A stretch of 64,000 bases of DNA from Fidelibacterota bacterium (GTDB lineage: Bacteria > Fidelibacterota > UBA8477). Of the stretch, positions 6,844 through 53,498 are shown one piece after another; positions within the stretch are counted from its first letter, which is position 1; every line of letters starts with the position of its first letter. The translations under genes and the position numbers were made by a program. The stretch covers positions 1,497 to 65,496 of the forward strand of contig JAIPJQ010000003.1 in the NCBI GenBank assembly GCA_021734065.1, in the 5' to 3' direction. The notes under the pieces are model-generated. The model saw only the letters and a program-made list of their open reading frames with translations, was not told the origin of the DNA and searched no databases.

Positions 6844-6874
6844 CCTGACGGATCAAGGTAAGGACTGGAATCCC

Positions 6875-10231: not shown

Positions 10232-10744
10232 TCAATCACCTGGCCGAAGGATTCTCCCCGCGATATCTTCAATCACCCGGGGTTGTTCATAATATCCCTG
10301 CTGGATTTTTTCACGTATGGATTGGATTTCCTCATCGCTGAGCTGGTGCGGATTCTCACGCTGCTTTTGTAATTCTTCGAAACGCGCCGTCAGGATTTCC
10401 CTGATTCCCGGATCACCCATGATTCCCTCTGCGATCTTCTCGTGACTCTCGGGCGTATCGTATTTACCGGAGGTTATCGCTTTATTTATTCGCGCTATTT
10501 CAGCCGAATCTGACTCTTTCAGCACCTGAAGGTAGCGTCCCACCTCTTCCATTTGCTGTAACAGATTTCGGCCGGTATTGGAGATCTTCACACGGGCGGC
10601 GTTTCCGGATTCGGGAGGATCCGAATTTGTGGTCTCTTGCTTACCGACTTTCGATTGATTACCGGTACGATTGTTCGTGGCTTGGTTTTCTCGCAGGCGA
10701 CGAAATTCCGGTGGAAGGTTGTTTATGTCTTTAATTGGTCCCAT
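10232..10744 (-). CDS. flgM: anti-sigma-28 factor FlgM-like protein with duplicated C-terminal motif
   Basis: 170 aa. Polar, disordered-looking N-terminus. Two copies of the FlgM signature (EIARINKAITSGKYDTPESHEKIAEGI and EIQSIREKIQQGYYEQPRVIEDIAGRI). Last gene of the late flagellar block. Confidence 0.6.
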   Translation of the reverse strand: MGPIKDINNLPPEFRRLRENQATNNRTGNQSKVGKQETTNSDPPESGNAARVKISNTGRNLLQQMEEVGRYLQVLKESDSAEIARINKAITSGKYDTPESHEKIAEGIMGDPGIREILTARFEELQKQRENPHQLSDEEIQSIREKIQQGYYEQPRVIEDIAGRILRPGD

Positions 10745-13841: not shown

Positions 13842-14666
13842 TTACTGGAAGAGCGAGAGGACCGACTGAGGCGCCGTATTCGCTTGAGCGAATGACGACA
13901 GAGCGGTCTGCTGGAGGATCTGTAATTTCATTACCTCCATTTGCTCTTCAGCAAAGTCCGCATCTTCAATTGAACTTCTCACCGCTTCGGTGTTGGTGGC
14001 TGCCAATTGTAAAGTTGTCTCCTTGGAAGACAGACGAGACTGGTAGTTACCAACATCCTGCATTGAGGCCGCCAAAGTATCAATGGCAGAGCTCAGTGAG
14101 GAGATCGCTGCAGAAGCACTGGCCTGGGTGCTGATCGCCACTGAGTTAATGGACAGCGCTGCAGAATCGGAATCACCGAGTGTGACACTCAGGGTGTCAT
14201 TAGCGCCTTCACCAACCTGGAAATCATTACTGGAAACGCTACCATCGATCAGGGCTTTTCCATTGAACGTCGTGTTGGTGACGATGTCATCAACTTCTTC
14301 GATCAGAGCAGTGACCTGATCATTCAGAGCTGTGCGCTGATCGTCTGACAGGGTATAATCCGCTGCTTGGGTGGCTTTTTCTTTTACTGTTTGCAAAATG
14401 TCCATGATGCTCTGATAGCCACCCTCGGCCACATTCAGTACATTCTTGGCATTGGAAACATTCTGCAGAGCCACGTTCAGACCACGGCTGCGAGACTCCA
14501 GACCGCGTGCCAATTGATATCCAGCTGGATCATCAGCAGCAGAATTGATCTTCTTGCCCGTGGACAGACGCATCTGATGCACACCAATTTTGTTGTTGAT
14601 GTCCTGCATCGAGCTTAACGATTGCAGTGCCCGTACGTTTGTGAAAATCCTTGTTAGATCACCCAT
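13842..14666 (-). CDS. fliC: flagellin (short, about 274 aa, lacking large D2/D3 insertion)
   Basis: Conserved N-terminus (RIFTNVRALQSL..., LSTGKKINSAADDPAG) and C-terminus (MEVMKLQILQQTALSSFAQANTAPQSVLSLFQ). Start reassigned to ATG 14666, which is preceded by GGAGG. The ORF-track start at 14741 adds 25 non-flagellin residues. Confidence 0.92.
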   Translation of the reverse strand: MGDLTRIFTNVRALQSLSSMQDINNKIGVHQMRLSTGKKINSAADDPAGYQLARGLESRSRGLNVALQNVSNAKNVLNVAEGGYQSIMDILQTVKEKATQAADYTLSDDQRTALNDQVTALIEEVDDIVTNTTFNGKALIDGSVSSNDFQVGEGANDTLSVTLGDSDSAALSINSVAISTQASASAAISSLSSAIDTLAASMQDVGNYQSRLSSKETTLQLAATNTEAVRSSIEDADFAEEQMEVMKLQILQQTALSSFAQANTAPQSVLSLFQ

Positions 14667-14673
14667 AATAAAA

Positions 14674-14709
14674 CCTCCGTGTTTGTTGACAGATGATGTC
14701 CTTATCATC
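14674..14709 (-). promoter_or_regulatory. candidate CsrA binding sites in the flagellin 5' leader
   Basis: The minus strand reads GATGAT-AAGGAC-ATCATC (14709-14692), a 6-bp hairpin that presents GGA in its loop. A second GGA lies in ACGGAGG (14680-14674), overlapping the Shine-Dalgarno. csrA and fliW are present in the window. Confidence 0.55.
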
Positions 14710-14834
14710 CGCTGGGTTTCCGGTGGCATGTCCCATCTCACCCTTTTCGAGCGACTTCCGATGCCGACAATTCACTGGTATTCTCTTGTCAAGGCGCCCA
14801 TCTCCGTCTTGGATTCGCTGGGCTTCACTATCCA

Positions 14835-14861
14835 TTATCGGCTGGCTTCAAAAAAACTTTA
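14835..14861 (-). promoter_or_regulatory. sigma-28 (FliA) promoter of the flagellin gene
   Basis: The minus strand reads TAAA-N15-GCCGATAA, an exact match to the sigma-28 consensus, about 170 nt upstream of the flagellin ATG. Confidence 0.8.
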
Positions 14862-15163: not shown

Positions 15164-15190
15164 TAAAGATTTGCAAACTCCGGCCGATAA
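15164..15190 (+). promoter_or_regulatory. sigma-28 (FliA) promoter of the HTH/REC-HD-GYP/motAB operon
   Basis: The plus strand reads TAAA-N15-GCCGATAA (exact consensus), 33 nt upstream of ATG 15223 and divergent from the flagellin promoter. Confidence 0.75.
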
Positions 15191-16894: not shown

Positions 16895-17707
16895 GTGGAC
16901 ATTGCCACCATATTAGGAATCATTTCAGGCGTGGGGCTTATCCTGATTTCAATCACCATGAACAGCGGCTTGGAGTTGTTTGTAAATATTCCCTCCATCA
17001 TGATCGTCGCCGGTGGCACCCTGGCGGCAACCCTCATTGCTTTTCCTCTCCATGAAGTCCTGATGGTCCTGTCGCTGCTCAGACGCATTTTCTTTCATAA
17101 ACGCTCCGATGCCCGGGCATTGATAACTCAACTGGTGGAGTTGGGTGTCCAGGCGCGGAAAGGTGGCGTGCTCTCGGTTGAGAATCAGCTCGCACAAATT
17201 AACAATGAATATCTGCGCAAGGGGCTCCAGCTGGTAGTGGACGGCGTCAGCGAATCCGGCATTATCAACATGCTTAAAATCGAAGAGGTCAATACGCGCA
17301 AACGACACCAGACCGGTTGGGAAATATTTGCTGAAATGGGTAAATACTCACCGGCATTCGGTCTGGTGGGCACCCTGATCGGGTTGATCCAGATGTTGGC
17401 GAATTTGGACGAACCGTCAACCATCGGACCCCGGATGGCCGTGGCGATGATCACCACCTTTTATGGCAGTATCATGGCCAATCTGATCTTCATTCCCATG
17501 TCCGTCAAACTCAAACGCCGTAGCCAGGAGGAAGCCATTCTCATGAGTCTGGTTATGGAGGGTATCAAATCAATCCGGTCGGGTGAAAATCCCAAACTCA
17601 TGGAGGACAAACTCAACAAATTCCTCTCGAATGAGCAGCAGAAAAAAATCGCAAAAAGTCTGAAAAAGGGCCGGGGGGCCAAGAAAAAGCCTGCGGACAA
17701 AACCTAA
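16895..17707 (+). CDS. motA: flagellar stator protein MotA (set 1)
   Basis: 270 aa with a GTG start preceded by GGAG. Four TM segments and the MotA/TolQ/ExbB signature (PAFGLVGTLIGLIQML, TTFYGSIMANLIFIP). Confidence 0.88.
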   Translation: MDIATILGIISGVGLILISITMNSGLELFVNIPSIMIVAGGTLAATLIAFPLHEVLMVLSLLRRIFFHKRSDARALITQLVELGVQARKGGVLSVENQLAQINNEYLRKGLQLVVDGVSESGIINMLKIEEVNTRKRHQTGWEIFAEMGKYSPAFGLVGTLIGLIQMLANLDEPSTIGPRMAVAMITTFYGSIMANLIFIPMSVKLKRRSQEEAILMSLVMEGIKSIRSGENPKLMEDKLNKFLSNEQQKKIAKSLKKGRGAKKKPADKT

Positions 17708-17725
17708 CCGGGAAGACCCAAACTG

Positions 17726-18586
17726 ATGCCAGATTCGGATCAAAATAACGACGATACTCTGTTTGAGGAAGTTATCGAGGACGAGGAGCAGGATGGATCA
17801 GCATCCTGGTTAATGACGTTCGGCGATATGATGACGCTGTTGCTGGCGTTTTTCGTCCTGCTGTTTGCCATGAGTGAGACCCAGATGGAAGATTTCGCTC
17901 AATTGATGGAATCGCTCAAAAAAGCAATTGGTAAGCAGGAGGTCCCTGAGGCCGGTACCCGTGTTGGCTTGAAAATGATGGAGATTAAGGCAGAAGAACA
18001 GCCGAAAGCGGTGGATGAATTGGGCGCTCTGGTTAAAAAGGAGATGGAGGACTTCGAGAGTCAGACCGAGGAGTTTATTCTTGCGAATACGCTGGCAGGC
18101 CAGGTGAAGGTTGAGGAGGACGGCCGGGGGGCTGTTATCACGATCTCGGATCTAATTCTTTTCCCATCAGGTGAGGCCGATTTTCTGACTGATGCCGAGG
18201 ACGTATTATTAAAAATCAAAGAATTGATCAATCAATTTAAATATCATGTAAAGGTTGAAGGACATACCGACAATGTCCCAATTAACACCCCCGAGTTTCC
18301 CAGCAATTGGGAACTATCAGCAAATCGGGCGAGTAAGATCGTGCGTTTTTTTATCGAACAAGGAGTTGATCCTGATCGGCTATCTGCTGAAGGTTTTGCT
18401 GAATATCGACCCATTGAAGATAACTCAACGATTGAGGGGCGCGCAAAAAACCGGCGGGTAGAGATTGTCTATCAGCGAGCGGATGTCACCCGGGCAATTC
18501 AGGATTCCCTGAACCAAGTTGATAACACCAACCCGATTGAAAAACTTCCAACCTCCACATCTCGGGACAGTACCCGCGCACCTTAA
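17726..18586 (+). CDS. motB: flagellar stator protein MotB (set 1), OmpA-like C-terminus
   Basis: 286 aa. SWLMTFGDMMTLLLAFFVLLF carries the conserved proton-channel Asp. C-terminal OmpA/peptidoglycan-binding motif (GHTDNVPI...NWELSANRA...NRRVEI). Confidence 0.88.
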   Translation: MPDSDQNNDDTLFEEVIEDEEQDGSASWLMTFGDMMTLLLAFFVLLFAMSETQMEDFAQLMESLKKAIGKQEVPEAGTRVGLKMMEIKAEEQPKAVDELGALVKKEMEDFESQTEEFILANTLAGQVKVEEDGRGAVITISDLILFPSGEADFLTDAEDVLLKIKELINQFKYHVKVEGHTDNVPINTPEFPSNWELSANRASKIVRFFIEQGVDPDRLSAEGFAEYRPIEDNSTIEGRAKNRRVEIVYQRADVTRAIQDSLNQVDNTNPIEKLPTSTSRDSTRAP

Positions 18587-19629: not shown

Positions 19630-19656
19630 TTATCGGTCAAAAATCAAGCTCCTTTA
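19630..19656 (-). promoter_or_regulatory. sigma-28-type promoter upstream of the REC-DHp gene
   Basis: The minus strand reads TAAA-N15-ACCGATAA (one mismatch to consensus). It overlaps the stop codon of the GT2-TPR gene, about 215 nt upstream of ATG 19413. Confidence 0.6.
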
Positions 19657-21089
19657 GAGCTTTCTGCAGACGAGGGGGATTCACGGTTTAATTCCTGTAA
19701 AAGCCGATGTGCTTTTTCAACCTCTCCGACTTTGCTGTACAAACCCACTAACCGTTTGAGCGCCAGTCGGTTTCCCGGATCGGCAATGAACATTTGTTCA
19801 TATAATTGAATGGCACGTGGAAAATCCTGCTGTTTGACCTTTAGGATGGCCAACAAGTTCAGATATTTAATCTCGTCCGGAGCTTCGGTTAGCAACGCTT
19901 CCAGCTCGGTTTCTGCGGTTGAATAATCGTTGGTCTTCAAACTGATATCCACCAGGGATTCTCTCGCCGAAATATGATGTATCCCCAAATTCCTTGCCGC
20001 TTCCAGTGCTGCCCTTGCTCGTGCCGGTTCCTCCATTTTTAGTAGAAGCATTCCCTTTGTATATAAAATCTGTCCTGAGTCGATAGAAACATCAACGGAA
20101 ATGTTCTGGTTCAAGGATGATCGGGCTTCGCGCAGAGTCAGCAATTTATCCAACCATCCCAAAGCACCGGACAATTCGCCGGCTTGTTCGGCCAGGCGAT
20201 ACCTGAGGTAAATTGCCGAAGTCTGATGAGGAACCAGAGCGAGAGAAGCATCGGTCATTTTTCTGGCCCGGTCGGGCTCACCCAATCGCAGGTACGTTTC
20301 TGCGGTCACATTGAATAATGATGCCTTCATCCCCGGTGTAAAGTTTTCACGCGACAGTGCCACTTTCAGATGTTCCAGAGCTTCTGCGGGTTGATCCAGC
20401 AGATTGTATTGCTCACCAAGCTTATAGTGAGCATAAGCATTGCCCGGATCCTCCGTAACCAATTGTTGCAGCAATTCAAGGTTACGCCGGGCTTTGCGCG
20501 CTTTGCGATCCCCGGTAAAACCATAGCCTAAATGGAGTAGAATGATTTTTGATTCAAACTCCACACCTTTGAGTTTAATAGCGCTGGGAACCAACTGTTC
20601 GTGGATCCGGCCACTGAATTGGAGTCCAATATTATTTGAAAACAGACGGTGCGCCTTTGATAACGAAAAGGTGCACCCGTCTTCTTTAATATTGCGAATA
20701 TGAACATTATACAACGTGGGTTTTTTAACCGGTTTTAAAAGTTTTTTCAATTGGGGAATGGATTCCGGGAGTAATCGTTCATCAGCATCCAGCCATAAAA
20801 TCCAATCACTTTTGGCATATTGGATCGATGCATTGCGGGCTTTGGCAAAATCGTCTTCCCACGCGGATTCATGTACCACCGCACCGAACGATCTGGCCAA
20901 CTCAATCGTACCATCGGTTGAACCCGTATCCAGGATCAGCATTTCATCCACCACATCTCTGACGCTTGCCAGACATTCCGCCAGCATTTCTTCTTCATTC
21001 CGGACGATCATGCACAGTGATAATGTTTGCCGGACCGGGAGAATCGGCTTGCTGGTGAAGCTCTTTTTCCTGGTCATGGGCACCGGCAA
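19644..21089 (-). CDS. family-2 glycosyltransferase fused to TPR repeats
   Basis: 481 aa. N-terminal GT2 fold (LSLCMIVRNEEEMLAECL...ILDTGSTDGT...WLDADE), then about 280 aa of TPR-like repeats. Confidence 0.8.
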   Translation of the reverse strand: MPVPMTRKKSFTSKPILPVRQTLSLCMIVRNEEEMLAECLASVRDVVDEMLILDTGSTDGTIELARSFGAVVHESAWEDDFAKARNASIQYAKSDWILWLDADERLLPESIPQLKKLLKPVKKPTLYNVHIRNIKEDGCTFSLSKAHRLFSNNIGLQFSGRIHEQLVPSAIKLKGVEFESKIILLHLGYGFTGDRKARKARRNLELLQQLVTEDPGNAYAHYKLGEQYNLLDQPAEALEHLKVALSRENFTPGMKASLFNVTAETYLRLGEPDRARKMTDASLALVPHQTSAIYLRYRLAEQAGELSGALGWLDKLLTLREARSSLNQNISVDVSIDSGQILYTKGMLLLKMEEPARARAALEAARNLGIHHISARESLVDISLKTNDYSTAETELEALLTEAPDEIKYLNLLAILKVKQQDFPRAIQLYEQMFIADPGNRLALKRLVGLYSKVGEVEKAHRLLQELNRESPSSAESSKGA

Positions 21090-22147: not shown

Positions 22148-25100
22148 CTATGCTTTCTGTTGAGCCAAAACAGCCTGTTTCAATTCACGGGCTGATGGAT
22201 TTTCCGGATCCAGCGCAAGCACCTTCTCACTCCAGGATACCGCTTCATCCTTATTCCCCGCCTCTTCATGGAGCTGGGCCATCCGCAGTAAGCTGGGTAT
22301 ATCATCCGGGTTCCGATCCAGGATTGAGATATAGGTCTGAACACCACCAGTGTAATCTTCCTGTAGTAGCTGTATCTCTGCCAGATTACGCCGGGCATCG
22401 ATAAATGTCGGTTCCAGGTCGATGGCGTGGCTGATCAGAACATGAGCCTTTTCCAGATCCCCGGTTTCCGCTACAATAATACCACTTTGGTTATACGCCG
22501 CCGCATCGGCTGGATTGAACTTGAGAATTTTGTGCAGCAGACGTAGCGCTTCTTCAGAATGATCCAGGTTACGGGCGCAAATCGCCAGACCGAATAACGC
22601 CTCTTCGTCGAGTGGGTTTTCCCGGTAAATCTCCCTGAATAACGCATCCGCCTCGGGGAAATGTCCCTCGGCCAGTAACGCGGTCGCCCGCTTGATTTGA
22701 TAAGGATGCATCTCCTGCAAACCATTCCGAATTTCCAGCAATTCTTCGTAATCCACATCCGGCCATTTCGCGTGAAACAATTTCAGGCGTTCTTTGAGAT
22801 TTTGCTGGTAATCAATCCGGTTGGCTTTAAAGGTTTGGCTGCCAAAATGGTGCAACAGAACGGATTCATCAACCATGAGGGCCAAACCCTTTTCCCGAAT
22901 CCGTAAACTCAGATCATCATCTTCAAAATTACCCACACCAAACGAGGTGTCAAATCCACCGATCTCATCATAAAGTGATTTTTTCATCAATACCGCAAAA
23001 CCAGCCAGTCGGCGACGGGGTGTGAGCCGATTTTGATTTTGTTGATGGAGCGTTGAGGCGAATTGGAAAAATTCCTCGTCCGTGTCATAGGGTACTTCAG
23101 TCAACGCCTGACGACCACTGATATAGTTGGTGATCGGTCCCACAGCCCCGATATTTTCATCCCTTTCCAGCGATTCAACCAATGACCCAAGCCAACCTTC
23201 CGGAACGAGCACATCATTATTGAGCAGTATGATGTATTTTCCGCTGGCTATGGCAACACCTTGGTTATTGCCTTCAGCGAAGCCCATATTTTTCCTGTTT
23301 CTGATAAGCTTGTAATGCGGGTTCTTTTTAATCAGGGTATTCAGATATTTAACAGTGCCGTCAGTGGAGGCATTGTCCACAAAAACGATCTCAAACGGAA
23401 TGCTTGTATTTTTTTCAATCGATTTCATGCACTTTTTCGTGTATTCCAGAGCATTCCAGGTGAGCATGATGATTGAGACGAGGGGGTGGGCATCCGCATC
23501 CTTCATTTGGTCATGGTCATGATCAAACTTGGCTGTCATCAACTCCCGGATACGACCCGTACTCCAATTCCGCTCAACCAGGGCTCTCCCATTTTCAGAT
23601 AAGATTGTCCAGAGTGGTTGATCATGATACAGTTCAACCACAGATGCTACAAAATCTTCCGGTTTATCAGCCACCAGTGCTGTTTTACGGTGCTCCAAAC
23701 TCATACCTTCGGCACCGATCGAAGTAGTTACCACCGGGATCATCCAGGAGAGGGCTTCACCGATTTTACCCTTCATGCCGGCCCCATAGCGCAGTGGTGA
23801 AATAGAGATACGAGCCTTTTGAAGGTACGGTGTGAGATCTTCCACATAACCGGTCACGATTATCTGATCATTCGCCAGACTTTTGATCGATTCCGGAGGA
23901 TTGTTTCCCACGATGTACCACTTGATATCCGGAAGTTTTACCAGGATCGCCGGCCACATATTCTTATGAAAATGCAGAACAGCATCCACATTCGGGGTAT
24001 GGGAAAAATTCCCGACGAACAACAGATCGCTGGTTTGATCAAAGAGCCTTTCGACTGTCGGCATTTCATGGATATTGGGTATGATGTCGATGGGAATATT
24101 ACCGGTTTTGGGTGCAATGGATCGCCTGTCATTCTCGGTTACCACCCACACCTCATCCGCCTGATTATAAACGGCCAATTCCTGTTTTTGCTTTTGTTTG
24201 GCGATCTGTTTTAATTCTTGATCTTGTTTTAATTCCGCTTCCCGAATCTCACGAATAAAATGAATGTCAACCGTATCAACGATAATCTTAGTTCTGGATG
24301 TGATCTTGCGTAGACGTGGAATGAAATACTGGGCAATGTACCAGAAGGAAAGAATGGCGTAATCAAACTGGCGCGGTTTGAAAATCAGATCATAATTGAT
24401 GGGTGGAAATTCACGATTCAATTTGAATCCGGCCATTTTTAAGGCCTCGCCGTCATTCCCCCAGACCTCCACACCAATATTTTGTAGATCCCGAATGTAC
24501 CGGACATCGGGCGATAAAAGGCACGCCATATAGGTGACATGATAACCCATCTCACGCAAAATTTTGATATAACTAAACAATCGGAGGGAACCAGAAGCTC
24601 GATCATAGGCCGGCAGAAATTGATCAGCGATAAAGATATTACCCTTGATTCCACGCTGGGAAGCCCTTACTACATTCGATGGTCCCGGAGCAGATTGTTC
24701 TGACAATTCGGCTCGCCACTTGTCTAAAAATTTAGCAGCGTTGACTTTCTGGTAGCGTTTGAAACCAGTATTCAGATCGGTACCGGCCGTTTGCCCTTCA
24801 TAATGGACAACAACACTTGCCGGCTGGTAATAAACCTTAAATCCATTTTTTCGTACGGCAAAACAGAGGTCGGTATCTTCATAGTAAGCCGGAGAATAGC
24901 GTTTATCAAAACCACCGATAGTGTCCCACAACGATTTTCGAATCATTAGTGAAGCACCCGAGCAGTAATCCACCTCCCGGACAAAATTGAAAGCCGGGTG
25001 ACCCGGATTGTTACCACGGCCAAAATTCCAGCCACTCCCGTCCGAAAAAATGATCCCGCCGGCTTCCTGCAGCTTGCCATCGGGATACACGAGTTTTGAG

Positions 25101-28100
25101 CCAACTGCACCGCAATCAGGCCTTCTTTCAGCTAGTTGGACGAGCGATGTTAACCATCCGGGTTGAACCTCTGTATCGTTATTAAGGAAAAGTAAATATT
25201 CGCCCTCAGCTTCTGTTGCACCATGGTTACAGGCCTTAACAAACCCATGATTTTCATCATTAGAAACGACTTTATAATTCGAGATTTCGGACTGTTTTTG
25301 TAAAAAGTCGGGGGTATTGTCTGTGGACGCATTATCTATGATAATAACTTCATATTGGGAATATCTTGTATTCTCTTTAATCGCTTTAAGACACTTTTTT
25401 GTTAGCTCCAATTTATTGAAAACCGGAATAATGATAGACACTAAAGCTGTACGATCAACTTTTTTCTCAACGCTCCCCAAATCGCCGGAATGATCCAATT
25501 TACGATCGACAACTTTTTTTACGATCTTTTCCAAATCCACGTCAATCTCCAAGAATTTTTGGATACCTTTAAGAAGATCCGATCGGTTTTCTGAGAGAAG
25601 CGCTTTATAACTCACATTAAAGGATTCAAAAGGTTGGATATATTTGTTCATTCTTGCAATATACTCATCGTAGAGATTTTCGGCTTTGGCTCGCGTAAAT
25701 TTATTCCGCTTCATCAATGAACGAACAACGGCTTCTTTGTCCCTGTCCATTACGATTATTTTTAAGTTTTGCGGCAGAACTTTCCGCCATACAGGAAAAG
25801 TGAGACAGAGCCGAGGATCCTTCAGCGCTATCAAAGAATTATTTTGATAGCATCCGGTCACACGCTCCAACAACGGATCAACCTTGATAGATGAAATATT
25901 ATCTGGAGATGGCGGCTCATCCCAAGCACCGCCAGCGATTGATAATATCAGATCATTTGTTCCCACCACACTCTGTCGCTCAAAAAATCCATTAGGGTTG
26001 TCTGGTCGGGGACCCATAATATCATCCGATTCACCAATATAAAAACCGGCCTTATTGAGAACATTCATCATCATTGAGGTACCACTTCGATGCATTCCCA
26101 TAACCGTTACAAATTTCGTAATCGAATCAGACTGCATTTTTTTCTCATAGATATGGATTGTGCCGGCTTCATTTTCTCTGATCTGTTTTTGACTTTTAAT
26201 CTTAACGAAGTGATGTTGTCGAATAAATTGGTCTAAGTTTTCATCGACAAAATAATTCTCCGGGGTACGAATAACGAAATTTTTACGAGCCAGCACCAAT
26301 AAATTATTTAAAACTTTAGGTCGGGTTGAAACGGGCAGATGGTGATAAAGTCCTAAGAAAAGAACCGTATCATAAGCCGTTTTTAAATGACCTTGAGAGC
26401 TACTTAAAAAACGTTCCCAAGAAGAAAGATCGGCTTGATAAAGCTTAGCATTCGTTACATTATTTTTTCTCAGCAGTTCATTACCAAATTTCACTCGGAC
26501 GGCATCATACTCAAATCCATCAATCCATTTTGCCTGTCCTTCTGTTGCTAAAAATTTTGTAATCAACCCCTCTGCACACCCTGTATCAAGAATCGTGTGA
26601 TCCTTAACCTGCTCCTTTATTTGGTTTAAGCCTGAAATACGACGACTAAATGGTCTTTTGCCAAACAGTCCCAATTTGGGGTCTCTAAAATAGTGTGTCC
26701 ATTGTGGTCGCTCTAATAATTGGACGAGTATTTTACTGTACTTTCCCCAGGTATAGTTTTGCATATCACTAAATGCAGCTTGTCCAATCCTCACGCGTAA
26801 ATTATTATTATTCATCAATAATTTAATGCTTTTACCAATCTCATTTGGTGTGATGTTCTTTAAACAAAGGGAATTGGTATCGTTGGCAAAATCAATTGTA
26901 CCCGCCTGGGTCAAAATAACAGGTTTACCTACAGCCATGGCTTGTGCAGCGGTATTACACCAGCCAGCATGGGTTTCTGTTGTGACAACAATATCCATAG
27001 AACGATAGAAATTTGTCAGTTCGTCGTCGTAAAGTTTTCCCAAAAATTTAAGTCTGCCTTGATTTACAAAATGGTCTGCATCTCTATGTTGGATTCCATC
27101 TGATCCATATAGGCTCAATTTGACATTGTCTGGCAACTGATATAATGACTGAATTAATGGTATCGGGTTTTTCAATGCATATCCACCAATGTTCCATTCA
27201 CCCGCTTTTACTGACTTACCATCCACCAATACATTAGGTTTTGGGTTTGAGTGAATGGCACCGGGCAGGATATAAAAACTATCTGCCTGCAAATTGACAT
27301 AACTGTCCCAATGTGAATTATTGAAAATAACTACGTGTGGTTTAAAAACCTGATTAACTGCGTAGGCGCGTTTCTCAACACTTTTATCATTCAAGACATG
27401 CTGAATCCGGGTACCGAATCGATCATCAAGCAATAGTTCAATTTTTTTAACCTCCTTACCTTCTACACCCGCCCCAGGAATCATAACGGCATCCCACTTT
27501 GAAGTACCCAAATCAGATAAAGTCATAATGCGTTTTTCGAGATAGGGCCATTGTGTATTTGTCTTATTGGAGAGGGATAAAAATTCTACCTCATGCCCGA
27601 CTTTTTTCAAGGCTTTAGCAACCTCAATAAATCTGGCAATCCCACCATTAAGTGTAAATTCAAACCAGGCCACCAAAATTTTTAGAGTTTTTGTGTGTAT
27701 ATCTGAATTTAGTTCGGTAAATATTTTATCCAAATATTTGATATCCGAGGCTTTCAGTTCTGTACGATAATTACCAATTTTACCGTTTCTAACTTTAGGT
27801 GCTCCATTGCGGAGCCGTAACCAGGGATGTGGGAATTTACCACTTTGCTCAGTTTTTCGCATTTTTTCGATGGTTGAATTAGCAATTGCAGTGCGCAGTT
27901 CATCATCACTAACTGAAAAATTATAAAACTTGAGAAGTTTTCTTACTCCACCTTCAATATCGTGTTTACATTCTTCATAACTGAGGGTTAACACATTAAG
28001 TTCACTACTTAAGTGATGCCACATATCGCGAAAGCGTTTCAATGATTTGGCACCAAAATAATCATCTCGAATAAATTCTGAAATTGAACCTCTGTAGTTG

Positions 28101-28366
28101 AAAAAATCATCAAACCGACCTGTTATTTGGTGATACAGGCTTACAATTAAATCTCGGGGATCACGTTCCAGGTAGACAATTTTCTCCACATTTCGATAAT
28201 GTGTTAACCGCCTTGAAATGTCATAATTATGGGGAGGACAAGATCCATCATTGAACTCAAAACTATCATGTTGGAAAGTAATTTTGTTCTCCAGCCCCAA
28301 CTGAAAGAGGATGAATCTGATCCAAGACCTTCCTGATTTTGGGTATGAGATAAATTGTCTTTGCAT
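22148..28366 (-). CDS. 2072-aa multi-enzyme: sulfotransferase - GT-B - SAM methyltransferase - sulfotransferase - GT2 - GT-B - GT2 - TPR
   Basis: Uninterrupted ORF. Motifs: YPKSGRSW / ERDPRDLIVSLYH / RNGKIGNYR (aa 1-225); ETHAGWCNTAAQAMAVGKPVI (aa 229-553); ILDTGCAEG (aa 585-745); GMHRSGTS / KDPR (aa 750-960); VSIIIPVFN...IDNASTD...YEDTDLC (aa 975-1225); GAGMKGKIGEALSWMIPVV (aa 1240-1615); VSIIMLTWN...VDNASTDGT...FEDDDLS (aa 1627-1850); TPRs (aa 1885-2072). Confidence 0.8.
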   Translation of the reverse strand: MQRQFISYPKSGRSWIRFILFQLGLENKITFQHDSFEFNDGSCPPHNYDISRRLTHYRNVEKIVYLERDPRDLIVSLYHQITGRFDDFFNYRGSISEFIRDDYFGAKSLKRFRDMWHHLSSELNVLTLSYEECKHDIEGGVRKLLKFYNFSVSDDELRTAIANSTIEKMRKTEQSGKFPHPWLRLRNGAPKVRNGKIGNYRTELKASDIKYLDKIFTELNSDIHTKTLKILVAWFEFTLNGGIARFIEVAKALKKVGHEVEFLSLSNKTNTQWPYLEKRIMTLSDLGTSKWDAVMIPGAGVEGKEVKKIELLLDDRFGTRIQHVLNDKSVEKRAYAVNQVFKPHVVIFNNSHWDSYVNLQADSFYILPGAIHSNPKPNVLVDGKSVKAGEWNIGGYALKNPIPLIQSLYQLPDNVKLSLYGSDGIQHRDADHFVNQGRLKFLGKLYDDELTNFYRSMDIVVTTETHAGWCNTAAQAMAVGKPVILTQAGTIDFANDTNSLCLKNITPNEIGKSIKLLMNNNNLRVRIGQAAFSDMQNYTWGKYSKILVQLLERPQWTHYFRDPKLGLFGKRPFSRRISGLNQIKEQVKDHTILDTGCAEGLITKFLATEGQAKWIDGFEYDAVRVKFGNELLRKNNVTNAKLYQADLSSWERFLSSSQGHLKTAYDTVLFLGLYHHLPVSTRPKVLNNLLVLARKNFVIRTPENYFVDENLDQFIRQHHFVKIKSQKQIRENEAGTIHIYEKKMQSDSITKFVTVMGMHRSGTSMMMNVLNKAGFYIGESDDIMGPRPDNPNGFFERQSVVGTNDLILSIAGGAWDEPPSPDNISSIKVDPLLERVTGCYQNNSLIALKDPRLCLTFPVWRKVLPQNLKIIVMDRDKEAVVRSLMKRNKFTRAKAENLYDEYIARMNKYIQPFESFNVSYKALLSENRSDLLKGIQKFLEIDVDLEKIVKKVVDRKLDHSGDLGSVEKKVDRTALVSIIIPVFNKLELTKKCLKAIKENTRYSQYEVIIIDNASTDNTPDFLQKQSEISNYKVVSNDENHGFVKACNHGATEAEGEYLLFLNNDTEVQPGWLTSLVQLAERRPDCGAVGSKLVYPDGKLQEAGGIIFSDGSGWNFGRGNNPGHPAFNFVREVDYCSGASLMIRKSLWDTIGGFDKRYSPAYYEDTDLCFAVRKNGFKVYYQPASVVVHYEGQTAGTDLNTGFKRYQKVNAAKFLDKWRAELSEQSAPGPSNVVRASQRGIKGNIFIADQFLPAYDRASGSLRLFSYIKILREMGYHVTYMACLLSPDVRYIRDLQNIGVEVWGNDGEALKMAGFKLNREFPPINYDLIFKPRQFDYAILSFWYIAQYFIPRLRKITSRTKIIVDTVDIHFIREIREAELKQDQELKQIAKQKQKQELAVYNQADEVWVVTENDRRSIAPKTGNIPIDIIPNIHEMPTVERLFDQTSDLLFVGNFSHTPNVDAVLHFHKNMWPAILVKLPDIKWYIVGNNPPESIKSLANDQIIVTGYVEDLTPYLQKARISISPLRYGAGMKGKIGEALSWMIPVVTTSIGAEGMSLEHRKTALVADKPEDFVASVVELYHDQPLWTILSENGRALVERNWSTGRIRELMTAKFDHDHDQMKDADAHPLVSIIMLTWNALEYTKKCMKSIEKNTSIPFEIVFVDNASTDGTVKYLNTLIKKNPHYKLIRNRKNMGFAEGNNQGVAIASGKYIILLNNDVLVPEGWLGSLVESLERDENIGAVGPITNYISGRQALTEVPYDTDEEFFQFASTLHQQNQNRLTPRRRLAGFAVLMKKSLYDEIGGFDTSFGVGNFEDDDLSLRIREKGLALMVDESVLLHHFGSQTFKANRIDYQQNLKERLKLFHAKWPDVDYEELLEIRNGLQEMHPYQIKRATALLAEGHFPEADALFREIYRENPLDEEALFGLAICARNLDHSEEALRLLHKILKFNPADAAAYNQSGIIVAETGDLEKAHVLISHAIDLEPTFIDARRNLAEIQLLQEDYTGGVQTYISILDRNPDDIPSLLRMAQLHEEAGNKDEAVSWSEKVLALDPENPSARELKQAVLAQQKA

Positions 28367-28466: not shown

Positions 28467-28691
28467 CTATAAAAATTGTCCTAATATCTCAGTTGAGAAA
28501 CTTCCTGATGCAGCGGTAGCAGCCTGATTCTCTTCCCGGATTTTCTGATAAATTTCTTCTCGGTGAACCGCAATGTTTTCCGGTGCGACAACGCCAAGTT
28601 TTACTTGTCCGGAAGATGTTTTAATGACTGAGATTATCACATTCGTTCCAATACGAAAACTCTCACCCGCTTTACGTGTTAATACCAGCAT
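28467..28691 (-). CDS. csrA: carbon storage/translational regulator CsrA
   Basis: 74 aa. [15 protein letters not shown]...[19 protein letters not shown] is the canonical CsrA sequence. Lies 2 nt after fliW. Confidence 0.95.
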
Positions 28692-28693
28692 GA

Positions 28694-29260
28694 TTAACGC
28701 TCCCCATTTGAGGTTCGCGTTGCCTGCTTGATCGTCGTGAAAGAATTTTCCTGTCCCGGGGTTGAAGTTGGTGCACTGGCTGATGAAGTGTCCGGTACCA
28801 ACGGATAAGAAATCGGCAGCGATTCATCATCCAAAATCACCTGGTATCCAGTTTTCTGCTCTGTTGAAACAATAATCGGCGCCCGCAGGTTAGCGGTGAG
28901 TTTGCCCAAACTGTGATTGAGCCGCAGGATAAAGAACGTGCAGATTTTCTCCTCCTGCGACAAAGAGATTTGGGTCAGTTTTTCAGGTGGTACGGTTACT
29001 TCAATCTTTTGAGAAATTACTTTGGGATCCAAAAGTAGCATCGCCACATGACTCGCATCGTCTGCAACCAGAAAGGCAAAGTGTGGATAATCCAGCAGTT
29101 CAAACAGATGGTAATGGTGCAGTTCTTCAAAGCCCGGAATTCCCCCTGGAAATTCTATTGCAATTCCCTGTTCTGCATCAATCCTGAACTGAGGACCTTT
29201 TTCAGGCTTTGGGGTTTGAGGTGATGAGTTTGGTTGTTGCATCATGCTTTCGTTTTCCAT
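28694..29260 (-). CDS. fliW: flagellar assembly factor FliW (CsrA antagonist)
   Basis: 188 aa. [19 protein letters not shown] and [12 protein letters not shown] motifs. fliW-csrA pairing. Confidence 0.9.
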
Positions 29261-29311
29261 CTGACACCTTATAGGTGCCTGTTCTGATTGTTCAGGTGCC
29301 TGCTTTGCCTT

Positions 29312-30187
29312 TTACAAATAATCCAACAGGTTTAACCGCAGTGATTCTGATGTCGTCTGAAGTGCGGCTTTGTAAGCAAGCTCTTCCCGGTTGTAGCGCA
29401 CAATGGCATCCATCAAATCAGCATCTTCAGTTTCAGACAAATTCGACAGCAGATTCGCATTGGCTGTTTCCAGGCGTTGCTGTGTCAAATCCAGTTGACG
29501 TATAAGCGACCCTTGCGCCGAAATAATGTTGCTCAATTGTTTCTCGGCCCCCTCCACTGCCCCCAGTGCATCATGGATGGCTGTGTCATCGTCCGCGCGT
29601 AATGCGTCCCGCAAGTCGATCATGTTCTGAAATAAACCGGTGTTAGTGAGTGTTTGGCCGGAGACGTTGATCTCCATGTTCTGATTCTCTGCGATGCGGC
29701 GCGTGATTTTATCAGTATTGCCTTGATAGGAAACTGATGTCCCATCGTAGGTAAACGGGTCGTTCCCCCTAGTCAGGGAACCACTAAAAATATACTTATC
29801 CATATACTTACCATTTGCCAGGGCAACTGTATCCTCAATGATACCATCCAGCCGGTTCGCTAATTCATTCCGCACATTTTGGTTTGCGACATCTGCAGAC
29901 TGGATGCCGATTTCACGGACCGCCATAATCTGATCTTCGAACGTTGAGAGCACCTGTAGAGAATTTTCCATCCAGGCCCGGGTACTGGTGATCGTATCAA
30001 TGTACTGTTTATTCTGCCCAATGGTTTCATTTAACCGACGACTCTTCATGTAGCCTTGTGGATCGTTACTGGGTTTTAGAATTCGTTTCCCGGTAGACAT
30101 CTGCTGTTGGATCTGGCCCATGTTTTCGCGTTTTTGATTTATCGCGTCCATCAGGTTGCGGGTGATAATCGAGTCTGTTACACGCAT
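29312..30187 (-). CDS. flgL: flagellar hook-associated protein 3 FlgL
   Basis: 291 aa. MRVTDSIITRNLMDAINQ N-terminus and a flagellin-like C-terminal helix. Downstream of flgK. Confidence 0.88.
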   Translation of the reverse strand: MRVTDSIITRNLMDAINQKRENMGQIQQQMSTGKRILKPSNDPQGYMKSRRLNETIGQNKQYIDTITSTRAWMENSLQVLSTFEDQIMAVREIGIQSADVANQNVRNELANRLDGIIEDTVALANGKYMDKYIFSGSLTRGNDPFTYDGTSVSYQGNTDKITRRIAENQNMEINVSGQTLTNTGLFQNMIDLRDALRADDDTAIHDALGAVEGAEKQLSNIISAQGSLIRQLDLTQQRLETANANLLSNLSETEDADLMDAIVRYNREELAYKAALQTTSESLRLNLLDYL

Positions 30188-30309
30188 AGGGCTACACTCC
30201 AGAGTGAGATTTCATTTATTATTTCAAGTCTATTGGCCCAATTCATCTCAGGATGAGAGAAGGACTTCACGGCGTTGATGAGAGTAAAAAGGAACATCTA
30301 TCTACCTGA

Positions 30310-31665
30310 CTAAACCATGTTAATAATTGTTTGCGTGATGTCTGAAACCGTAGAAATAACTTTGGCGGCGGCTTGGTAAGCCTGCTCAAACTCGATCAAC
30401 CGAGTCATTTCCTCGTCAAGTGATACGCCAGAAATCGCGTCCCGCTGATTTTTCAAATTGAGGACCAGTTTTTCCTGGCTTGTCTTGAGAAAATCCGCTT
30501 CCTGGACCTGCTTACCCACACCACTGACCATTTGGTTGTAGAATTGGTTTGCCGAATCACCGTGAATAATTTGGGCGAATTGCAAATCAGATATTGCTGA
30601 CGCAATTGCGCCCTCGCCGGGTTTATCTGAATCGCTAGCTGTTGCGATCAAACTCGCATCGTTAAGCACATCCGGGCTGAGGGTAAAGTTTTTGGCTCCG
30701 GTAATCCCATCTGCAAAAAAGTTTACACCGGTAACATTGTCCAAATTATAACCGGATTGATGCAATCCATTGACACGAACGGCAATATTTACGGCCAGTT
30801 CATCCAGCTGATTTCTGATCGTTTTTATGGATTCATTGTGGTGATCGAGAATACTTGCCAGCGCACCTGATTTGGGAACAACTGTCCGCTGTGAATTTCC
30901 CAGCTTCAACCCCAGAGTATATTCAGATGATTGGGAATTCCAGGTTGCCTCAGCCGAAAATGTGTTTACAATGCTCTGTGAAATCAACAGCGATCCATTG
31001 GATGCAATGGTCACCGTCCCATTAGCATTTTCCCGAACATCCATCTCCATAATGGGCGCCATTTCATTCAGGAGTGCGTCCCGTTGATCCAGCAGATCAT
31101 GGGAGGGTTGTTTGATAATTCGTCGATTGAGTTCACCCATCTGGGTCAACAGGCGATTCAGATCGTCAATTTTTTGTTGAAACTGGCTACGAAGTGTGCG
31201 CTGCAGGTCTCCCAAATCTGTATCCAGTTTTTGAAAAGAACGGACCAGGGTCTGCCCCTGACTGCGAACTTCTGTACGAGCAGCCTGACTTTCAGGGTCA
31301 TTGGCTATGGCGCTCCAGGAATTCCAAAAAGAACTCAGTACATTGGATAAGCCAAAATCACTTGGTTCCCCGAAAATATCCTCCACCTGTTGGAAAATGA
31401 TCTGATCGGATTCACGTCGTCCCAAATCCTGTTTTTCAAATCTTAATTGTGATTCGATAAAGGAATTTTGAACCCGGACCGTATCCGCATGTTTTATTCC
31501 ACCGTTCGTTGTCGAAAATCCCAGTGTCGATTCGGAAATCTTCACCTGACGCCGCTTGTAGACATCGGAATTCATGTTGGCAATATTTTTGGCCGAGGTG
31601 TTGATCGCCGATTGATTGTGTTGCAAAGACTGTTTGGCCATATCGAATATTTTTTGAATAGACAT
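30310..31665 (-). CDS. flgK: flagellar hook-associated protein 1 FlgK
   Basis: 451 aa. N-terminus INTSAKNIANMNSDVYKRRQV and C-terminus GVSLDEEMTRLIEFEQAYQAAAKVI. Confidence 0.9.
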   Translation of the reverse strand: MSIQKIFDMAKQSLQHNQSAINTSAKNIANMNSDVYKRRQVKISESTLGFSTTNGGIKHADTVRVQNSFIESQLRFEKQDLGRRESDQIIFQQVEDIFGEPSDFGLSNVLSSFWNSWSAIANDPESQAARTEVRSQGQTLVRSFQKLDTDLGDLQRTLRSQFQQKIDDLNRLLTQMGELNRRIIKQPSHDLLDQRDALLNEMAPIMEMDVRENANGTVTIASNGSLLISQSIVNTFSAEATWNSQSSEYTLGLKLGNSQRTVVPKSGALASILDHHNESIKTIRNQLDELAVNIAVRVNGLHQSGYNLDNVTGVNFFADGITGAKNFTLSPDVLNDASLIATASDSDKPGEGAIASAISDLQFAQIIHGDSANQFYNQMVSGVGKQVQEADFLKTSQEKLVLNLKNQRDAISGVSLDEEMTRLIEFEQAYQAAAKVISTVSDITQTIINMV

Positions 31666-31677
31666 AAATAATCGACC

Positions 31678-32256
31678 TTATCCTTTTCTGTCCAACAAAC
31701 AGGTATCGGTGGAATTTTTATCGGTTATGCCACGCGTATCGTACAGGGTCATGTCTGATCCCTGTTGCCGATATAAAAGGTTGATCATCCCTCGGGCATA
31801 ATCCATGGATGCCCGCAATAAATATTCATTCTGCTGGTTTGTTTCCGTGATTTGGTGTGCCACGGTTTCTGTTTGTTTGATCAGTTTGCTCAGTGCCGGT
31901 GAAAGATCCCGGGGAACCAGAGCTTCCAGATATCTCAACCGGGGTTCAGACATTTCCCGGCCATGGCATGTGGCAATTTTTTTCATCAGGCCGGCGCGCT
32001 CTTTCACCCTGTCCCCCAGTTGGTTTGTCAGCAGTCCCTCTTCGCCTGTGATCCGATCCAATTCATCCACATTCCCCGCAATGATGACCTGCTGCTTTTT
32101 CAGCACTATATCTTGCAGACGATTGCACCACATCAATTCCACCGAGAGCATTGATATCAGTGTTTGGAACATCTCATGGGTTGTGAGCGTGCTGCCCTGG
32201 TCATTGATAAATTCATCCACGGGCTTCAACAATTGATTCGTTTTTGCCTGCCCCAT
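31678..32256 (-). CDS. flgN: FlgN-family export chaperone
   Basis: 192-aa helical protein (LISMLSVELMWCNRLQDIVLKKQQVIIAGNVDELDRIT) directly upstream of flgK. TAATG overlap with the preceding gene. Confidence 0.65.
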   Translation of the reverse strand: MGQAKTNQLLKPVDEFINDQGSTLTTHEMFQTLISMLSVELMWCNRLQDIVLKKQQVIIAGNVDELDRITGEEGLLTNQLGDRVKERAGLMKKIATCHGREMSEPRLRYLEALVPRDLSPALSKLIKQTETVAHQITETNQQNEYLLRASMDYARGMINLLYRQQGSDMTLYDTRGITDKNSTDTCLLDRKG

Positions 32257-32675
32257 TATCGTGTGTCCTTGAGCAGGTCCATGCGCAACGAATGTAGGGT
32301 GTTGAAATCCCAGCTTTTCAATTCAGTAATGGCGTTTATCGGTCCGTGATCTTTTTCAGCCAGGGCACGGTAAAACATCTCTGACAAGCCCGTGGGATTA
32401 CCCTTCGCCAAAGCATCCCCCATCGTACTGCTGAAAAGCATGGAGGAAAGGGTATTCTGTTGGCCGGAAAGGCTGTTCTTAGGTACTGTTTTTTCCATCG
32501 CCTTAACGATCTGGGACAGAAAGGATGCTTCCAACTGCTCACTGGCTTGCCGGAGCTGAATATCCCGCACCTTTAGATTTTCAACGTCAAGGTTCTTGTT
32601 CTTGTATTGCTCCACCGTATTTTGACTGGAAGCTGAATGTGACTGAAGTTGGATTTGAGATGATATTGGATCCAT
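32256..32675 (-). CDS. flgJ: rod-binding protein (FlgJ N-terminal domain only, no muramidase)
   Basis: 139 aa. QLEASFLSQIVKAMEKT and MLFSSTMGDALAKGNPTGLSEMFYRAL match the rod-binding domain. Too short to carry a glucosaminidase domain. Confidence 0.7.
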   Translation of the reverse strand: MDPISSQIQLQSHSASSQNTVEQYKNKNLDVENLKVRDIQLRQASEQLEASFLSQIVKAMEKTVPKNSLSGQQNTLSSMLFSSTMGDALAKGNPTGLSEMFYRALAEKDHGPINAITELKSWDFNTLHSLRMDLLKDTR

Positions 32676-53461: not shown

Positions 53462-53498
53462 GGACTGACCGGTTTCGACATGATGGAAGTTTTCAAGA

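Follow-up and report, generated by a model that had tools for sequence, protein, structure and literature searches.

What does a bacterium build with a single protein that combines two sulfotransferases, a methyltransferase, four glycosyltransferases and a tetratricopeptide repeat (TPR) array, and that is encoded among its flagellar genes? The protein in question, of 2072 amino acids (aa) and referred to here as the giant, lies in a 64,000-nucleotide (nt) stretch (the window) of contig JAIPJQ010000003.1 (69.6 kb) from a Fidelibacterota bacterium (assembly GCA_021734065.1) and carries the NCBI label 'MAG: glycosyltransferase [Candidatus Marinimicrobia bacterium]', MAG denoting a metagenome-assembled genome. 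An earlier note on this DNA had proposed that the one polypeptide makes a sulfated, methylated oligosaccharide for flagellin. Our analysis favours, with a probability of about 0.68, a cytoplasmic flagellin O-glycosylation island in which a neighbouring enzyme, a family 2 glycosyltransferase with TPRs (GT2-TPR), would initiate the glycan and the giant would extend, methylate and sulfate it. The sulfotransferase and methyltransferase domains of the original proposal are real; sulfation itself is a prediction, and the first sugar is likely to be added by the neighbour rather than by the giant. The giant and its modules, which include sulfotransferases (ST) dependent on 3'-phosphoadenosine 5'-phosphosulfate (PAPS), glycosyltransferases (GT) and an S-adenosylmethionine (SAM) methyltransferase (MT), are as follows.

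22148-28366, minus strand: the giant, 2072 aa, eight modules, ATG start, no internal stop
27692-28366, minus strand: module 1, ST1 (aa 1-225), cytosolic-SULT-type PAPS sulfotransferase; Pfam Sulfotransfer_1, 1e-23
26615-27691, minus strand: module 2, GTB1 (aa 226-584), GT-B glycosyltransferase of a conserved triad; Glycos_transf_1, 8e-13
26120-26614, minus strand: module 3, MT (aa 585-749), class-I SAM methyltransferase; Methyltransf_31/25, 1.6e-8; ILDTGCAEG
25445-26119, minus strand: module 4, ST2 (aa 750-974), Sulfotransfer_3/TPST-like; GMHRSGTS, FE, KDPR, R875-x7-S883
24650-25444, minus strand: module 5, GT2a (aa 975-1239), GT2, 1e-31; IDNAS, NNDT, YEDTDL; first member of the C-terminal core
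23489-24649, minus strand: module 6, GTB2 (aa 1240-1626), GT-B (Glyco_trans_1_4), 7.6e-25; core member
22715-23488, minus strand: module 7, GT2b (aa 1627-1884), GT2, 6.8e-30; VDNAS, NNDV, FEDDDL; core member
22151-22714, minus strand: module 8, TPR array (aa 1885-2072); Pfam TPR

The reading frame was single and uninterrupted, as had been claimed, and Pfam hidden Markov model scans of the whole protein and of its eight segments recovered all eight modules in the order given by the earlier note. The gene begins exactly 100 nt past csrA (28467-28691), also as described. The giant is soluble, with no transmembrane-like segment (Kyte-Doolittle 19-residue maximum 1.25).

The two sulfotransferases belong to different families, in agreement with the original description (Sulfotransfer_1/SULT for ST1 and Sulfotransfer_3/TPST-like for ST2), and AlphaFold2 (AF2) models of both were confident and were matched by Foldseek to sulfotransferase folds. 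ST1 aligned to human SULT2B1 (1e-13), with YPKSGRSW over the 5'-phosphosulfate-binding (5'-PSB) loop YPKSGTTW, RDPRDLIVS (R68 to S76) over the 3'-phosphate-binding (3'-PB) motif RNPRDVVVS and GKIGNYR over the GxxGxxK motif. K10, H46, R68 and S76 were invariant in ST1 among nine homologues. H46 lies 22 residues before R68, which is the spacing of the SULT catalytic histidine, in an inter-motif region that is ~20 aa shorter than in SULTs and was left unaligned by HMMER, and we infer that it occupies the catalytic position. The AF2 model of ST1 had a mean confidence (pLDDT) of 88.6 and Foldseek TM scores of 0.70-0.75 to cytosolic SULTs, and the module carries the 5'-PSB loop, 3'-PB motif, GxxGxxK motif and fold of a cytosolic-type PAPS sulfotransferase. 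ST2 was marginal in Pfam (Sulfotransfer_3, 27.5 bits against a cutoff of 27) and found no relative in PDB as a single sequence. A nine-sequence ST2 profile matched the tyrosylprotein sulfotransferases TPST1/2 at 1e-7 to 5e-5, with GMHRSGTS aligned to GVPRSGTT of TPST, and the invariant R-x7-S pair of its 3'-PB motif is spaced as in ST1. The best Foldseek matches of the ST2 model (pLDDT 88.8) were TPSTs (probability 1.0, TM ~0.56, the likeness being limited to the cofactor-binding core), followed by the sulfotransferase domains of CurM and olefin synthase. ST2 therefore has the PAPS-binding motifs and the fold of a TPST-like/Sulfotransfer_3 enzyme.

The methyltransferase and GT2 modules also retain their characteristic motifs. 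D594, E599 and H676 of the methyltransferase were essentially invariant among 53 GTB1-MT homologues, and both GT2 modules, which are 34% identical to each other, keep the [VI]DNAS, NND and acidic EDxDL-type motifs. The nearest relatives of GT2b are generic GT2s such as K4CP and GalT1. As the best PDB match of GT2b is the chondroitin synthase K4CP, a sulfated glycosaminoglycan-like polymer was considered as the product and rejected: the alignment extends over no more than ~110 residues, in the nucleotide-binding half common to GT2s in general. The TPRs of the giant resemble OGT-type TPRs, and by analogy with FlmG and GmaR the array is a probable docking domain for a protein substrate, flagellin.

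The initiating enzyme is best sought outside the giant:

19644-21089, minus strand: GT2-TPR protein, 481 aa, candidate initiating flagellin O-glycosyltransferase, no transmembrane segment
21159-22142, minus strand: protein with a cyclic-nucleotide (cNMP)-binding domain, 327 aa, between the giant (5-nt gap) and the GT2-TPR gene

The best solved relative of the GT2-TPR protein was the GT domain of Listeria GmaR (22ao; E=1e-30, over the whole domain) and the next was the peptide glycosyltransferase SunS (1e-25), making it a TPR-bearing glycosyltransferase homologous to a proven flagellin glycosyltransferase. It is not a GmaR proper, which has a MogR-binding antirepressor domain (481 against 637 aa). 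No other GmaR chain matched at E<=1e-3, the 204-aa GT-domain chain being the only one, and the inclusion of GmaR 141-637 in the PDB copy searched is unconfirmed. The precedent of GmaR invoked by the earlier note is thus borne out by direct homology for 19644-21089 and not for the GT2-TPR end of the giant itself. Because the GmaR homology belongs to this separate neighbour, the giant is probably an elongating and tailoring enzyme and not an initiating one. The GT2-TPR enzyme had been said to follow the giant directly; it is present, and the first gene downstream is that of the cNMP-binding protein. The latter has its cyclic-nucleotide-binding domain at the N-terminus, an uncharacterised C-terminal two-thirds and no transmembrane segment. 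It is possibly regulatory and may link glycosylation or motility to cNMP signalling; the gene is missing from the two syntenic Calditrichota loci (L001 and Caldithrix L095; loci are designated L and proteins P below). Orthologues of the GT2-TPR protein stand beside a core or cassette protein in L001 (45% identity), L091 (47%) and L095 (43%), and likewise in Ignavibacterium (L093, 34%), Geobacillus (L094, 35%) and Desulfacinum (L011, 34%).

The late flagellar setting claimed for the giant was confirmed, with flgN, flgK, flgL, fliW and csrA as neighbours, and the giant lies between flgL-fliW-csrA and the flagellin gene:

28467-31665, minus strand: flgK, flgL, fliW and csrA, late flagellar genes upstream of the giant
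13842-14741, minus strand: flagellin, ~274 aa with a probable start at M26 (nt 14666), the proposed substrate
14836-14861, minus strand: sigma-28-type promoter match TAAA-N16-CCGATA, upstream of the flagellin gene
19646-19662, minus strand: terminator-like hairpin at the end of the GT2-TPR gene

The centre of the flagellin is rich in serine and threonine (29 of the 100 residues in aa 151-250), and the protein has four tyrosines, none of them within this centre. Flagellar structural, motor and signalling genes fill the window from ~10.2 kb to its 64-kb end. The order is a FlgM-like gene, flaG, fliD, fliS and flagellin; a helix-turn-helix (HTH) gene, a response regulator-HD (RR-HD) gene and motAB on the opposite strand; an RR-HisKA gene, the GT2-TPR gene, the cNMP gene, the giant, csrA, fliW, flgL, flgK, flgN and an unnamed open reading frame (ORF); flgI, flgH, flgA, flgG, flgF and sensor kinases; fliA, flhG, flhF, flhA, flhB, fliR, fliQ, fliP, fliO, fliN, fliM and fliL; and finally a second motAB pair, flgE, fliK, fliJ, fliI and fliG. 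No polysaccharide-export or lipid-carrier gene (flippase/Wzx, polymerase/Wzy, ABC exporter, phosphoglycosyltransferase, oligosaccharyltransferase) was found in the window. The wzm/wzt, wzx/wzy and initiating phosphoglycosyltransferase genes of an ABC- or Wzy-dependent polysaccharide pathway are therefore missing from it, and the glycosylation genes inside the flagellar locus encode cytoplasmic machinery with neither transmembrane segments nor lipid-carrier genes.

Sigma-28-type matches numbered three in the window against 0.27 expected, and none lies ahead of the giant. Sequence scans detected neither a terminator-like nor a promoter-like site in the 100-nt gap between csrA and the giant, and the hairpin at 19646-19662 is a possible, weak candidate for the end of an operon. 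The window holds two separate MotA/MotB stator pairs, at 16895-18586 (plus strand) and 52748-54263 (minus strand). The first pair comes after the HTH gene and a response-regulator/HD-GYP-type gene, and a sigma-28-like match lies upstream at 15164-15189. The ORF at 32256-32675 (minus strand), in the position of flgM before flgN, had no Pfam match but has a counterpart in the Calditrichota locus (E=4e-16). Near flaG, another gene (10232-10744, minus strand) encodes a 170-aa protein with a FlgM domain, so that either product may be the anti-sigma factor. The genes at 1288-9259 (plus strand), for a bacterial alpha-2-macroglobulin of 1851 aa and then a PBP1C-type transglycosylase/transpeptidase, form the classic 'periplasmic defence' pair, which is unrelated to the giant.

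The C-terminal core, GT2a-GTB2-GT2b(-TPR), belongs to a very large family, with at least 8000 scored candidates, all at E<=1e-20. Many relatives are collinear over >=99% of the query at 40-57% identity, and they include proteins of Caldithrix abyssi, Ignavibacterium album, Melioribacter, Thermodesulfobacteriota MAGs, Paenibacillus and Geobacillus. Their N-terminal additions vary and comprise sulfotransferases, methyltransferases, deacetylase or radical-SAM domains. In Geobacillus zalihae (L094) the order is flgM-flgN-flgK-flgL-x-fliW-csrA-flagellin-[GT2-TPR]-[GT2b-GT2a-GTB2]-rmlACBD, in I. album (L093) the core and GT2-TPR pair adjoins flagellin-fliS-fliD, and in C. abyssi (L095) flgK-flgL-x is followed by an 1852-aa protein with two Sulfotransfer_3 domains, the core and TPRs, and then by the GT2-TPR gene. 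The C. abyssi locus was taken from protein P0162, which is near-identical to P0161 of strain DSM 13497; this species carries a complete set of flagellar genes and its cells have been seen tumbling, although electron microscopy showed no flagella (PMC5317091). The reading of the locus as a flagellin glycosylation island is strengthened by these three cases, because in each the core and its GT2-TPR partner adjoin flagellin or flgKL. In the Calditrichota MAG (L001) the order is flgK-flgL-[2907-aa analogue of the giant]-two GT2-TPR genes. This analogue (P0002; L001:10001-18724) retains ST1-GTB1, ST2 and a GT2b-TPR end that is 60% identical; its cassette methyltransferase is reduced to ~40 residues, an N-terminal Methyltransf_24 domain has been gained and the middle GT modules differ. 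Compared with the giant, it points to module swapping inside one polypeptide.

GTB1, MT and ST1 form a conserved triad that is found across very diverse bacteria, either encoded by neighbouring genes or fused into proteins of ~500-1170 aa. The usual order is GTB1-MT-ST1, and the lineage of the window has ST1 at the front, a circular permutation of the cassette. Core flagellar genes lay within 10 kb of nine of the 37 triad loci in GTDB genomes, compared to none of 43 control loci, in which a distant ST1 homologue stands alone (Fisher p=5e-4). Since the other 28 triad loci have no flagellar genes nearby, the triad appears to be a mobile glycan-tailoring unit that has repeatedly been recruited to flagellar loci, not a flagellum-specific device. 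The flagellar triad loci include those of Alteromonas aquimaris, Hansschlegelia zhihuaiae and Rhodobacteraceae with a TPR+GT41 protein. In A. aquimaris an ST2-like gene, GTB1-MT and ST1 are followed by flagellin. The whole block in strain ASW11-7 (L046:1-11629), GT8/GT2/ST2-like/GTB1-MT/ST1, opens with a sulfatase and ends directly at the flagellin gene; the presence of a sulfatase with sulfotransferases hints at turnover or editing of sulfate groups.

Five of the eight closest sulfotransferase-bearing relatives of the giant (P0002, P0004, P0006, P0007, P0008) adjoin flagellin or flagellar genes, and three of the eight (P0004, P0005, P0007) have an adenosine 5'-phosphosulfate (APS) kinase gene directly adjacent. 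The locus of Ca. Desulfofervidus runs fliD-fliS-fliT ... Maf-like gene ... APS kinase, the last overlapping the gene of a 1639-aa protein, and L004 has the order flagellin-APS kinase-[1788 aa]-WbsX GT-[TPR+GT41]-flagellin-flaG-fliD-fliS. In L005 the cassette protein stands between two APS kinase genes, and in L006, L008 and L010 flagellin genes lie at the contig ends. In other flagellar loci the triad is paired with a different TPR-bearing protein glycosyltransferase (OGT-like GT41-TPR in L004, L008 and L043) or with a Maf-like protein (L002), and such partners fit a tailoring role for the triad downstream of an initiating enzyme. The L005 contig (L005:1-13719) opens with the C-terminal fragment of a flagellin and further encodes a methyltransferase, a phosphoenolpyruvate-utilising (PPDK-like) enzyme, a glutamine amidotransferase, a nucleotidyltransferase, an additional sulfotransferase and TPR proteins, which looks like a richer modification pathway. 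The non-flagellar triad locus of Mesorhizobium (L016), with Ig-like repeat proteins, LysR and YkuD, was uninformative on context.

Q475 of GTB1 follows the same permutation. The motif is E464-x10-E475, and its second glutamate is kept in 50 of 53 homologues; the giant has glutamine instead (codon 26942-26944). Q475 was found in exactly those proteins that have an N-terminal ST1 (P0001, P0002, P0003, P0010), where it accompanies the permuted cassette. Because all four share it, it is a lineage character and not sporadic decay.

All seven module junctions of the giant, the places where a misassembly would be expected to show, were seen again in independent assemblies: ST1-GTB1 in P0002, P0003 and P0010, GTB1-MT in over 50 proteins, MT-ST2 in P0003, ST2-GT2a in P0004 (a further 13 of the 120 top core relatives have ST2 on the N-terminal side of the core), GT2a-GTB2 in every one of those 120, GTB2-GT2b in nearly all of these, and GT2b-TPR in P0002 and many others. 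As every junction recurs, the fusion is no assembly artefact. The collinear order ST1-GTB1-MT-ST2 occurred in the window protein and P0003 only among 1.84 billion representative proteins, and ST1, GTB1 and MT were absent from all of the top 120 core relatives. A search for proteins of the same domain order accordingly gave a divided answer, in that only the complete eight-module order is unique in the proteins searched and its parts are common. Near-uniqueness of the protein as a whole was discarded because the C-terminal half as query returned thousands of relatives; that a full-length homologue search gave no more than nine matches was an artefact of its word-based filter.

The G+C content at third codon positions (GC3) climbs along the gene, with values of 0.30, 0.35, 0.32, 0.40, 0.40, 0.49, 0.50 and 0.54 for modules 1 to 8. 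The C-terminal values (0.49-0.54) are at the level of the neighbouring genes, and csrA, just upstream, is low (0.32). This climb suggests that the N-terminal cassette was gained more recently than the C-terminal core. A chimeric contig was rejected as the cause, both flanks being syntenic with L001 and L095 and all junctions recurring elsewhere. The giant is best described as a fusion of two units that existed beforehand, the widespread flagellin-locus core (ST2-)GT2a-GTB2-GT2b-TPR and a mobile GT-B/methyltransferase/sulfotransferase triad added at the N-terminus.

These observations can be combined into a proposed pathway for this Marinimicrobia (FCB group) genome. In the cytoplasm, the GmaR-like GT2-TPR enzyme (19644-21089) would place the first sugar on serine or threonine residues of flagellin. 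The giant, tethered to flagellin by its C-terminal TPR array, would next lengthen the glycan on the protein, using as many as four glycosyltransferase activities. Its MT domain would O-methylate the glycan with SAM, and the two unrelated sulfotransferase domains would sulfate it at two positions with PAPS. The modified flagellin would then be exported by the flagellar type III system. In this scheme we infer flagellin as the acceptor, the order of the reactions, the identities of the sugars and the placement of sulfate on sugar rather than on protein.

Several observations weigh against the proposed flagellin pathway. No APS kinase or other PAPS-synthesis gene was found in the 64-kb window. 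Sigma-70 promoter-like sites (38 against 31.8±6.4 expected) and terminator-like sites (22 against 19.5±5.2) stood at background level, so the scans lend no support to co-transcription of the giant with the flagellar genes. The triad lies mostly outside flagellar loci (28 of 37 with no flagellar gene within 10 kb), some distant core relatives, few in number, are labelled 'O-antigen biosynthesis protein' by JGI, and in Desulfacinum infernum DSM 9756 (L011:1-20651), where the cassette is split into GTB1-MT-ST1 (963 aa) and ST2-GT2a (989 aa), the triad is accompanied by a Wzx-like flippase, GT4s and a further sulfotransferase, in what resembles a surface-polysaccharide locus with no flagellar genes within 10 kb. 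L011 may represent non-flagellar protein or polysaccharide glycosylation that uses the same parts. Such loci would suit a giant that builds or tailors a non-flagellar glycoconjugate (lipopolysaccharide O-antigen, capsule or exopolysaccharide, or another glycoprotein) and whose flagellar location is incidental. We consider this unlikely for the window, which has no lipid-carrier, flippase, polymerase or exporter genes and in which the giant is soluble; the synteny with flgKL or flagellin and the GmaR-like glycosyltransferase are kept across Marinimicrobia, Calditrichota, Ignavibacteria and Bacillota, and even in the Desulfacinum locus a protein acceptor is indicated by the presence of two GmaR-like GT2-TPR genes.

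The nearest solved relatives of ST2 are protein-tyrosine sulfotransferases, and this too counts against sulfation of a sugar, as the acceptor could be protein. ST2 would then sulfate the flagellin polypeptide directly, on tyrosine or another hydroxyl, and ST1 alone would act on the glycan. Both the ST2 profile and its model match these enzymes best, the giant has a protein-binding TPR array, and bacterial tyrosine sulfation exists (RaxST). We nevertheless judge direct protein sulfation distinctly unlikely: the TPST match is moderate (TM ~0.56, 17-21% identity, PAPS-binding core only), the CurM and olefin-synthase domains, with their non-protein acceptors, score almost equally, flagellin has only four tyrosines and none in its Ser/Thr-rich centre, and ST2-like modules are fused straight to GT domains in many relatives. 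A simpler product would result if several modules were catalytically dead scaffolds, for which GTB1 (E475Q) is the main candidate; its activity is uncertain given a glutamine in place of a glutamate conserved in 50 of 53 homologues. However, Q475 is kept in all four proteins with an N-terminal ST1 over ~50% sequence divergence, which argues for a retained, modified function over decay, and all other cofactor motifs are intact, making a set of dead modules quite improbable. That the 2072-aa ORF joins ordinary genes through an assembly or frameshift error is scarcely credible. It comes from a single MAG contig and its GC3 rises from 0.30 to 0.54, but every junction is reproduced independently, the 2907-aa analogue fills the same slot after flgL in another MAG, and the syntenic flagellar cluster is the same on both flanks.

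Filament assembly, recognition by phages and predators, immune detection and surface charge are all shaped by the sugars on flagellin, and the groups known on bacterial flagellin glycans are methyl, acetamidino and phosphate, with a sulfonated peptide in Clostridioides difficile. If the proposed pathway is confirmed, sulfation would join the repertoire of bacterial protein glycosylation, a triad with APS kinase next to flagellin would serve as a genomic marker across many lineages, and glyco-engineering would gain attractive enzymes, compact, soluble and with several activities, for making sulfated glycans directly on a protein. A wider reading, for which we see the odds as even, is that at least four phyla place PAPS-dependent sulfate-ester, O-methylated oligosaccharides on flagellin via the triad, often with an APS kinase of their own. 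The groups concerned would be Marinimicrobia/Calditrichota, Desulfobacterota (Ca. Desulfofervidus) and Alpha- and Gammaproteobacteria including a cultured Alteromonas, and in the genome of the window the triad would have been welded to a common flagellin multi-GT core as a single eight-domain assembly line. Such a pathway, if real, would be the first for sulfated O-glycans on protein to be described in a bacterial flagellum. Three cultured bacteria, Caldithrix abyssi, Alteromonas aquimaris and Hansschlegelia zhihuaiae, are suited to a test, and Geobacillus would provide a contrast without sulfotransferases. Diversity among glycosylation islands, as this locus shows, could arise through module swaps within one polypeptide.

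Among known systems, Listeria GmaR has a GT2 domain followed by TPRs and O-GlcNAcylates flagellin (PMC9638930). The window gene 19644-21089 is likewise a GmaR-homologous GT2 followed by TPRs in a flagellar locus (PMC9638930). It is shorter (481 against 637 aa), without a detectable match to the TPR, linker or antirepressor parts of GmaR, and the window contains no MogR system; the giant itself is not GmaR-like. In the FlmG, Maf and OGT-like systems a TPR docks the protein substrate beside a cytoplasmic glycosyltransferase, and the TPR domain of Caulobacter FlmG is both necessary and sufficient for flagellin binding (PMC7591256). Those enzymes belong to other GT families and add a single sugar type, and the giant shares only generic TPR similarity with them.

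The type B system of C. difficile offers a parallel in design. Its GT1 initiates with GlcNAc, and its GT2, a protein with GT2 and methyltransferase domains, adds and methylates rhamnoses (PMC5207246). In both cases an initiating glycosyltransferase and a multifunctional elongating glycosyltransferase/methyltransferase lie beside the flagellin gene (PMC5207246), and a methylated, sulfur-containing, anionic glycan is known there and predicted here. The multifunctional enzyme (CDR20291_0242) was matched to the giant by architecture and context alone, and rmlACBD flanks the core relative in Geobacillus as it does in C. difficile (PMC5207246). The chemistry differs: the C. difficile glycan ends in a sulfonated peptidyl-amido sugar, and its authors state that no glycosulfotransferase gene is present (PMC5207246), whereas the window has two PAPS-type sulfotransferase domains and relatives with an adjacent APS kinase, which would imply sulfate esters in place of a sulfonate.

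The islands of Geobacillus, Paenibacillus and Clostridium occupy the same position after flgKL-fliW-csrA and flagellin (PMC5109656; PMC13317340), and G. zalihae has both the core multi-GT protein and the GT2-TPR partner. The published descriptions consulted mention no sulfotransferases, the Geobacillus glycosylation-island paper mentioning neither these nor TPRs, whereas the window has one 2072-aa chain with extra ST, GT-B, MT and ST modules. The closest precedent for the sulfation comes from the archaeon Halobacterium salinarum, in which the sulfotransferases Agl30 and Agl31 act on the N-glycan of archaellins and S-layer protein (PMC11980604). As predicted here, a glycan on a motility-filament protein is sulfated on distinct sugars by two different sulfotransferases (PMC11980604); that glycan is N-linked, separate enzymes build it on a lipid carrier, and archaellum and bacterial flagellum are not related structures. 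The earlier note had known of no sulfated, methylated oligosaccharide made by one assembly-line polypeptide for bacterial flagellin, and in line with this the open-access full-text literature, the scope of the search, which left subscription journals outside, yielded no account of a flagellin glycan in bacteria being sulfated with PAPS. Its broader suggestion of an undescribed system holds in part, because the core is widespread and flagellin enzymes combining glycosyltransferase and methyltransferase domains are known, and the complete eight-module order is unique in the proteins searched. Flagellin glycosylation islands as such are established; what this locus would add to them is sulfotransferase chemistry and an extreme fusion.

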